Part shown: positions 2,332 through 2,478 of the stretch, piece by piece | Layout of the letters: each line of letters starts with the position of its first letter | Numbering within the stretch: the first letter of the stretch is position 1 | Assembly (NCBI RefSeq): GCF_051903065.1 | Contig: NZ_CP178438.1 | From: Escherichia coli | Lineage (GTDB): Bacteria; Pseudomonadota; Gammaproteobacteria; Enterobacterales; Enterobacteriaceae | DNA: 64,000 nucleotides | Direction: 5' to 3' (one strand) | Notes under the pieces: model-generated | The model's input: the letters and a program-made list of their open reading frames with translations, nothing else | The model's database searches: none | Told to the model about the DNA's origin: nothing | Position numbers and translations under genes: made by a program

Positions 2332-2478
2332 TTACGATGCCGGGCGTGGATTGTTGGCGTCCGGCGCTTTACCAGATCCCCCCTACAGCGCTACAATGCC
2401 CGCCCTTAAAGTGGGGGCACTCCCCTAACCGCTTCATCAGGTGAAGCGGATCTGACCTGTCATCAGAACGAGAGAATT

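Follow-up and report, generated by a model that had tools for sequence, protein, structure and literature searches.

Between yegP and yegQ (trhP), in the 64,000-nt stretch of Escherichia coli DNA analyzed here (NCBI RefSeq assembly GCF_051903065.1, contig NZ_CP178438.1; hereafter the window), lies a 147-nt interval that we hold with high confidence to be a composite of a yegP terminator, a trhP promoter and a 75-nt trhP leader, and not one structured leader, with the promoter and leader conserved across species. The leader folds into three hairpins, and the last of these, P3, is nearly invariant in sequence while its two neighbors covary, lies directly upstream of a weak Shine-Dalgarno sequence and resembles the anticodon arm of tRNA-Thr(UGU). 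From these sequence features we propose that P3 may be a translational operator of the thrS type, acting by tRNA mimicry, with the encoded enzyme TrhP as its own repressor, a reading that we consider possible if somewhat short of an even chance. If this is true, TrhP would be the first known example of a modification enzyme regulated through mimicry of its substrate, and tRNA-mimicry regulation would extend from aminoacyl-tRNA synthetases to modification enzymes. It would also provide a testable model for the homeostatic control of cmo5U34 synthesis.

Organization of the yegP-trhP Interval

All positions follow window numbering, to which published K-12 end coordinates were transferred by sequence mapping. 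The yegP stop codon (2329-2331) and the trhP ATG (2479) bound the interval at exactly 2332-2478, the 147 bp given in the original prediction, an earlier reading of this DNA that had described a structured GC-rich element and had offered three roles for it: termination or attenuation of yegP, or regulation of yegQ as its leader. Of these roles, two are borne out, each by one half of the interval, the left half being a terminator for yegP and the right half a leader for yegQ, while the attenuator finds no support. The whole is not one continuous structured RNA because a sigma-70 promoter separates the terminator from the leader (Table 1), and published transcript maps, which the original prediction had named as a check, place a yegP 3' end and the trhP start on either side of that division, at window 2369 and 2404.

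The left hairpin is the yegP terminator, its 3' end coming from published mapping. It is an inverted repeat that had not been listed before (GCCGGGCG/CGTCCGGC, 2339-2346/2358-2365), begins 8 nt past the TAA and comprises nine main pairs plus the 2-bp inner extension (-18.9 kcal/mol including the tail); with its short U-run, this GC-rich hairpin ends yegP transcripts. In the supplement of a K-12 Term-seq study, a "primary" yegP 3' end is given at 2165559, which is window 2369 and falls within the UUU after the hairpin (PMC7815308). A consensus terminator scan of 2332-2478 reported no terminator because the U-tract is too short: the tail, GCUUUACC, has three U's, where a U-rich tract directly after the stem would hold at least five U's in eight. 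The hairpin accompanies yegP and is missing where baeR abuts trhP directly.

The -35 element of the trhP promoter overlaps the tail of this terminator, and the arrangement TTTACC-18-TACAAT scored 9 of 12 in a promoter scan. Published 5'-RACE-seq data place the yegQ transcription start site (TSS) at K-12 v2 2163617 (29 reads, 75-nt 5' untranslated region; PMC3415461 supplement), corresponding to window C2404, 7 nt past TACAAT and 75 nt ahead of the ATG. Neither the terminator nor the promoter is out of the ordinary, and public datasets already contained their ends. The locus shares with the common terminator-then-sigma-70 layout a left hairpin with a mapped 3' end, an 18-nt spacing between -35 and -10, a TSS 7 nt past the -10 and a GCCCGC discriminator, the last being GC-rich in the manner of rRNA/tRNA-type stringent promoters; it differs from that layout in its tract of only three U's and in the overlap of the -35 with the terminator tail.

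A C6 run (2379-2384) and a G5 run (2413-2417), both present as quoted in the original prediction, had been taken there to suggest pairing with one another. Such pairing is not supported: the C6 run sits in the promoter spacer, upstream of the TSS, and varies within E. coli, whereas the G5 run finds its partner in the CCCC just downstream, with which it forms the first leader hairpin, P1. A long-range C6/G5 helix was accordingly rejected, the C6 run being untranscribed from the trhP TSS, variable within the species and replaced in a toxin-antitoxin allele, as was an attenuator-like pairing of CCC (2403-2405) with the G5 run, since just two of those C's are transcribed. As a separate observation, the promoter spacer and discriminator (2374-2405 in the window, and the equivalent positions of L005-L082) are consistently rich in C and poor in G on the coding strand, whichever the genus; when transcribed by read-through from upstream genes, this segment could be a Rho loading site that insulates trhP, and such loading might explain a published Rho-dependent "termination zone upstream of yegQ".

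The plus strand of the interval folds at -50.6 kcal/mol (z = -1.75), with 8 of 200 shuffles equally stable, and the minus strand gives z = -0.65. By fold energy alone the interval is unremarkable on either strand, and it is comparison across species that raises the signal above chance; the paired positions, whose lack of conservation would have counted against the original prediction, are conserved and covary. The absence of a known RNA family, noted earlier from the sequence, holds up: in a scan of Rfam 15 with E values up to 10, the best match in the interval was PhotoRC-I (12.8 bits, E = 6.2, where the gathering score is 45), and CyaR at 3923-4008 alone passed its gathering threshold. The motif, which has no match in Rfam 15, now has a seed alignment and a covariance model.

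Table 1. Features of the yegP-trhP interval in window coordinates.
Feature	Position	Strand	Description
yegP transcription terminator	2339..2371	+	Hairpin 2339-2346/2358-2365 with inner 2-bp extension, then GCUUUA; published 3' end at 2369
trhP (yegQ) sigma-70 promoter	2368..2403	+	-35 TTTACC 2368-2373; 18-nt C-rich spacer; -10 TACAAT 2392-2397; discriminator GCCCGC 2398-2403
trhP 5' untranslated leader	2404..2478	+	From TSS C2404 to the base before ATG; 75 nt
P1 hairpin	2412..2427	+	UGGGGG/CCCCUA, loop CACU; -8.2 kcal/mol; sequence and length differ among species
P2 hairpin	2429..2449	+	CCGCUUCAU/GUGAAGCGG, loop CAG
P3, anticodon-stem-loop look-alike	2451..2467	+	Stem UCUGA/UCAGA, 7-nt loop CCUGUCA 2456-2462; U2458 and G2459 are equivalent to bases 34 and 35 of a tRNA
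Ribosome-binding region	2468..2481	+	AACGAGAG; weak Shine-Dalgarno GAGAG 2471-2475, 3-nt spacer, ATG 2479-2481
parD/parE toxin-antitoxin insertion/replacement site	2366..2387	.	Window carries the empty, ancestral allele

Conservation of the trhP Promoter and Leader

We compared the trhP loci of 80 Enterobacteriaceae species, which carry 70 distinct leaders. The gene yegP (DUF1508) lies upstream of trhP in about 17 of the 80, and most of the species have baeR directly upstream. Over the ~115 nt before trhP, 79 of the 80 species follow one plan, in which TTTAC(C/T), a C-rich spacer, GCGCTACAAT, (G/T)CCCGCCC, three hairpins and ACGAGA lead up to the ATG. The promoter in particular, as TTTAC(C/T)-N17/18-GCGCTACAAT-(G/T)CCCGCCC, is kept in most of these species, including those with baeR upstream, and the trhP promoter and leader stay constant across baeR-trhP gaps (L003-L082) that vary widely in length and content. 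Promoter and leader thus travel with trhP and not with yegP, the yegP-side half of the interval not being conserved. In the sampled members of other families the -10 element takes the form TA(C/G/A)AAT and the discriminators are mostly C-rich.

A covariance model of the leader scores 65-114 bits in all 80 species; outside the family it reaches 24-42 bits in six of the searched genera, and 15.9 bits in Photorhabdus (E = 0.54). Identity of the leader does not drop below 95% in 5,423 E. coli genomes, and the most divergent E. coli leader examined (96% identical) differs in the promoter spacer, the 3' arm of P1 and the linkers. Ten genera from other Enterobacterales families have just one or two hairpins upstream of P3, unrelated in sequence to those described here.

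The exception to the common plan is Cedecea, in which an insertion displaces the promoter and P1 by ~170 nt. In Cedecea sulfonylureivorans (L076, 2240-2500) the leader carries an insertion of ~140 nt that is bordered by directly duplicated copies of the P2 hairpin (AACCGCTTCACCCGGTGAAGCGGT) and contains a strong terminator-like hairpin (AAAGAAGGAAAAA…TTTTTCCTTCTTT), so that the promoter, P1 and the first copy of P2 stand ~170 nt upstream of P3. A further leader hairpin was seen at a TrhP homologue called Oceanospirillales-like by its neighbors in sequence space (L097, 250-312): a perfect 8-bp stem, GATGCGCC…GGCGCATC, closes a U-rich loop of 12 nt and stops 6 nt short of the start codon. This hairpin is unrelated to P3 and comes from one contig.

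P1 and P2 Are Conserved as Structure

The minimum free energy (MFE) fold of the leader consists of three independent hairpins (-24.8 kcal/mol), and per-species MFE folds return the succession P1-P2-P3 in nearly all of the 70 distinct leaders. P2 is the inverted repeat that had been quoted in the original prediction and that is indeed present (CCGCTTCA/TGAAGCGG, 2429-2436/2442-2449); it folds at -13.2 kcal/mol with pair probabilities of 0.98-1.0. When the 70 distinct leaders were aligned with MAFFT, eight of the nine P2 pairs showed two-sided changes, and none of 500 shuffles reached the observed covariation. In an alignment fitted to the covariance model (80 distinct rows), two-sided changes are found at all nine pairs of P2, with 93% of cells paired, at all six pairs of P1, with 81% of cells paired, and at 15 of 20 pairs in all; these figures come from an alignment that favors structure, a respect in which the MAFFT alignment is unbiased. 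Variants of P1 that preserve pairing include GAGGA/UCCUC and CAGGGG/CCCCUG, and some species lengthen the hairpin by insertion. P1 and P2, whose pairing is maintained by compensatory changes, therefore behave as structure-only hairpins.

Downstream of the hairpins, ACGAGA is conserved at 91-100% in the 80 species, and the Shine-Dalgarno sequence and AUG are predicted to be mostly unpaired (unpaired probability 0.53-0.92). Since they are not sequestered in cis, control through P3 would need a trans-acting factor. The leader does not have the makings of a riboswitch, as the three hairpins form no junction, conserved bases occur just in P3 and the Shine-Dalgarno sequence is unpaired. Nor does it look like an attenuator: the leader has no hairpin followed by a U-tract, and no alternative fold recurs among the 70 distinct leaders. 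A conserved leader peptide is excluded by leader lengths that differ by 1-2 nt between close relatives, and a mini open reading frame (ORF) in E. coli, reading GUG-GGG-GCA-CUC-CCC-UAA, was rejected because insertions and deletions in P1 break it in relatives.

P3 Is Conserved as Sequence

P3 is a second inverted repeat that had previously gone unlisted (TCTGA/TCAGA, 2451-2455/2463-2467). It occupies positions -28 to -12, its end lying 3 nt from GAGAG and 11 nt from the AUG, and its stability alone is marginal (-3.4 kcal/mol, pair probability ~0.6). Across the 80 Enterobacteriaceae species, 13 of the 17 positions of P3 never change; for comparison, of 74 fourfold-degenerate sites in invariant codons of trhP, only 2 (2.7%) stay the same in those genomes. 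Beyond the family, CUGA-N7-UCAG is kept at -27 to -33 in nine of ten genera from other Enterobacterales families, all with a loop beginning C-Y-U-G: the loop is CUUGAAC in Yersinia and Morganella, CUUGUGA in Pectobacterium and Limnobaculum, CUUGACA in Sodalis, CCUGACA in Mixta and Providencia, CCUGAAU in Photorhabdus and CCUGCGA in Leminorella. A GAGA-type Shine-Dalgarno sequence follows 1-8 nt past P3 in eight of these nine genera, Morganella having UCGGAA instead. Four CUGA/UCAG pairs and three loop bases are unchanged throughout the 80 species and the nine genera, and conservation of the loop is asymmetric, with C32, U34 and G35 (in tRNA numbering) fixed and positions 36-38 free.

That P3 is invariant while P1 and P2 covary points to sequence-specific recognition, and not to structure alone. 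It might be supposed instead that the leader has no ligand and that its hairpins act passively, by protecting the 5' end against RNase E and 5'-end-dependent decay, by insulating trhP from read-through or by providing a fixed geometry for a weak ribosome-binding site, in which case P3 would be conserved for setting a constitutive translation efficiency. Hairpins that stabilize mRNA at the 5' end are common, P1 and P2 do act as pure structure, the single-sequence fold z-score is unremarkable, and both an Erwinia species without P3 and distant taxa without the element are readily accommodated. Passive hairpins, however, would lead one to expect P3 to covary as P1 and P2 do, and instead it has stayed unchanged while 97% of neutral sites have changed; P3 is also weak and does not occlude the Shine-Dalgarno sequence. 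We regard a purely passive leader as unlikely.

Considerably less probable still is a role in DNA, in which TCTGA-N7-TCAGA would be an operator and a dimeric transcription factor bound at +48 to +64 would block elongation from the trhP promoter. The perfect 5-7-5 inverted repeat with two invariant half-sites is what such an operator would look like, but the central 7 bp are asymmetric, with loop positions 1, 3 and 4 fixed and their mirror positions variable, an asymmetry that argues for recognition of RNA over a symmetric DNA operator. Moreover, the spacing of the repeat is tied to the Shine-Dalgarno sequence and ATG (-27 to -33) and not to the promoter, leader length being variable.

P3 Resembles the Anticodon Arm of tRNA-Thr(UGU)

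P3 has several of the features expected of an anticodon-arm mimic, among them a 5-bp stem, a 7-nt loop with U-G-N at positions 34-36 and a location in the 30S binding region. The anticodon arm of K-12 tRNA-Thr(UGU), encoded by thrU, reads ACUGA-CUUGUAA-UCAGU, and the E. coli P3 is identical to it at 13 of 17 positions, the 27:43 pair being reversed; both also have A26 and A44. In Pectobacterium and Limnobaculum, CUGA-CUUGUGA-UCAG agrees with thrU at 14 of 15 positions over 28-42 (14 of 17 for Pectobacterium). Among 18 distinct K-12 anticodon arms, including those of all six substrates, tRNA-Thr(UGU) was the best match for each of eight leader variants, at 12-14 of 17 positions as against 9-11 for the runner-up. 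When a pattern derived from the leaders (CTGAC-Y-TG-W-NN-TCAG) was searched in 620 kb on both strands (1.24 Mb), the 93 matches consisted of 92 copies of the trhP leader, some of them in records of the same species, and the thrU gene itself.

Depending on the genus, loop position 36 is U, A or C, and the triplet accordingly UGU, UGA or UGC. All UGN anticodons belong to tRNAs in which U34 is hydroxylated toward cmo5U, the substrate anticodons having been checked in the K-12 tRNAs, which leaves position 36 without discriminating information. All six cmo5U tRNAs are substrates of TrhP (PMC6599085). As for the remaining canonical loop positions, U33 is present in five of the nine P3 loops from other families and a purine at 37 in six of nine; U33 together with A or G at 37 occurs in Yersinia, Morganella, Pectobacterium and Limnobaculum.

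Sequence-specific recognition of P3 need not mean recognition by TrhP. P3 could be the site of another factor, such as a different anticodon-arm binder (TrhO, CmoB/CmoM or threonyl-tRNA synthetase, ThrRS) or a global RNA-binding protein, or its loop could pair with a small RNA (sRNA) or a tRNA. An invariant, tRNA-like P3 adjoining the Shine-Dalgarno sequence between covarying neighbors suits any of these, for the sequence does not name TrhP, and G35-U36 are identity elements for ThrRS. Recognition of the ThrRS type, on the other hand, would not be conserved where position 36 is U, A or C according to the genus. The sRNA CyaR was rejected as a partner, its duplex with the leader being no better than with shuffled leader sequence (-28.7 against a shuffled mean of -28.9 kcal/mol), and a linear sRNA target fits less well than a hairpin with two P3 arms that are both invariant and mutually complementary. 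Control by the protein encoded in cis is also the more economical assumption, and we consider another factor at P3 an unlikely explanation.

Proposed Autogenous Control of trhP

Transcription from C2404 yields the 75-nt leader, in which P1 and P2 probably provide 5' protection and a scaffold, and in which P3 copies the tRNA-Thr(UGU) anticodon arm, with U34 and G35 kept, directly upstream of the weak Shine-Dalgarno sequence. Under the proposed TrhP feedback, surplus enzyme would take P3 in the trhP mRNA for the anticodon arm of a substrate and, by binding there, would block 30S binding; unmodified substrate tRNAs would compete TrhP away and relieve repression, and trhP mRNA left untranslated would be exposed to Rho. 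The P3 stem, we infer, forms in vivo, with TrhP as its ligand and repression of translation as the outcome of binding. That TrhP feeds back on its own translation through such a decoy, with hypomodified UGN tRNAs competing for the enzyme, is a tentative proposal to which we would give clearly less than an even chance. In a bolder extension, the decoy U2458 might itself be hydroxylated.

The closest parallel is the operator of E. coli thrS, the gene for ThrRS (Springer/Romby/Ehresmann, ref. 234 in PMC8394870). The thrS operator likewise has a leader hairpin just upstream of the Shine-Dalgarno sequence, within the 30S footprint. In thrS, too, the hairpin copies the anticodon stem-loop of the tRNA handled by the encoded enzyme, and the logic proposed for trhP is the same, in that the enzyme would bind its own mRNA as a pseudo-substrate, compete with the ribosome and be titrated by tRNA. 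The two differ in that TrhP is a wobble-uridine hydroxylase of the peptidase U32 family and not an aminoacyl-tRNA synthetase, that the trhP leader has one anticodon-like hairpin where thrS has two, and that the mimicked anticodon is UGN as opposed to CGU. The E. coli P3 also lacks U33 and a purine at 37; the likeness to thrS is one of layout, and sequence homology is not expected. Other autogenous translational operators of RNA-binding proteins, in ribosomal-protein operons and, as the archaeal L7Ae kink-turn (K-turn), in the protein's own 5' untranslated region, similarly place a short, highly conserved target mimic among variable flanks in their own leaders, but in trhP a tRNA anticodon arm would be mimicked and a modification enzyme would be the regulator. 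That modification enzymes might recognize mRNA motifs resembling tRNA was raised in a 2021 review only as a possibility. In the literature searched we found no paper describing the conserved leader, its tRNA-like hairpin or any regulation of trhP, and no documented tRNA-modifying enzyme with an autogenous operator of this kind.

In a Rho mutant, yegQ RNA rises more than 30-fold, and the same study reports a "termination zone upstream of yegQ" (PMC9160355); both would fit poor translational coupling of trhP. One might alternatively see in the leader an attenuator, or a platform for Rho-dependent termination, that ends trhP transcripts early, for instance when translation initiates poorly. The termination zone belongs to the very strong class of that study, RNA being more than 30-fold higher in the Rho N340S mutant, and an elemental pause sequence was noted (PMC9160355); the promoter spacer and discriminator are, in addition, C-rich and G-poor. 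Yet the leader contains no hairpin with a U-tract, no conserved leader peptide and no recurring alternative fold, its 75 nt are almost fully paired, which is unfavorable for Rho loading, and the part of the Term-seq table considered here has no 3' end inside the leader (PMC7815308). The Rho effect may also act on yegP read-through or inside the ORF, and would then be a consequence of P3 control and not an alternative to it. Early termination in the leader is, in our estimation, improbable.

Several points weigh against TrhP as the ligand of P3 and must temper the proposal of feedback. The Rho effect could equally reflect read-through from yegP/baeSR, and our literature search found no binding or reporter data for P3 and TrhP. 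In E. coli and most Enterobacteriaceae, P3 has C33 and C37 in place of the canonical U33 and purine 37, and a match of 13 in 17 is not rare, with ~1.6 expected per 64-kb window; the chance of such a match at this specific location is ~0.006, an estimate made post hoc. TrhP is reported to prefer tRNA-Leu3 and tRNA-Pro3, with Thr4 modified mainly by TrhO, and TrhP activity is reported not to have been reconstituted in vitro (both PMC6599085). With a stem that never varies, the pairing of P3 cannot be proven by covariation, and Pectobacterium, Photorhabdus, Sodalis, Leminorella and Providencia no longer have the fifth pair. An Erwinia species (L103, 181-303) has lost the 5' arm and loop of P3 while keeping UCAGA-UUGAGA before the ATG. 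Finally, no P3-like hairpin was found at two distant TrhP homologues, the Oceanospirillales-like one at 63% identity and another at 46%, and the mimicry idea could on that account not be generalized.

The parDE Cassette and Neighboring Genes

The trhP promoter is the site of an insertion or replacement polymorphism. In one locus (L001, 687-1510) a type II parDE toxin-antitoxin cassette of ~790 bp replaces the -35 element and spacer. Of 5,426 complete E. coli genomes, 1,844 (about one third) carry it at full length, always on the chromosome and always at this one site; the match to the window is split in ~2,240 of 5,423 E. coli genomes. The empty form is found in the window, K-12, Escherichia albertii and other genera. 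Strains with the cassette have lost the TTTACC -35 element, with the leader and -10 untouched, and trhP in these strains may depend on read-through from parDE. A divergent Escherichia (L003, 2049-2500) has a right junction of the toxin-antitoxin type but a gap of only 455 nt, in which a degenerate piece of parE is left (…GTPRPESGEGLFVLPFEHHVIDLLQ…); evidently the cassette degenerates at its site. Strains with parDE, which combine an intact leader with the loss of the -35, and the Erwinia species without P3 together offer a natural experiment.

The gene order in the window is baeS, baeR, yegP (1999-2331), yegQ/trhP (2479-3840), CyaR (3923-4008), yegR and yegS. The sRNA CyaR/RyeE (RF00112, 100.7 bits) directly follows trhP, and the window runs from cyaR into yegR without the PR-X/ogrK cryptic prophage remnant that is found at the 3' end of cyaR in K-12.

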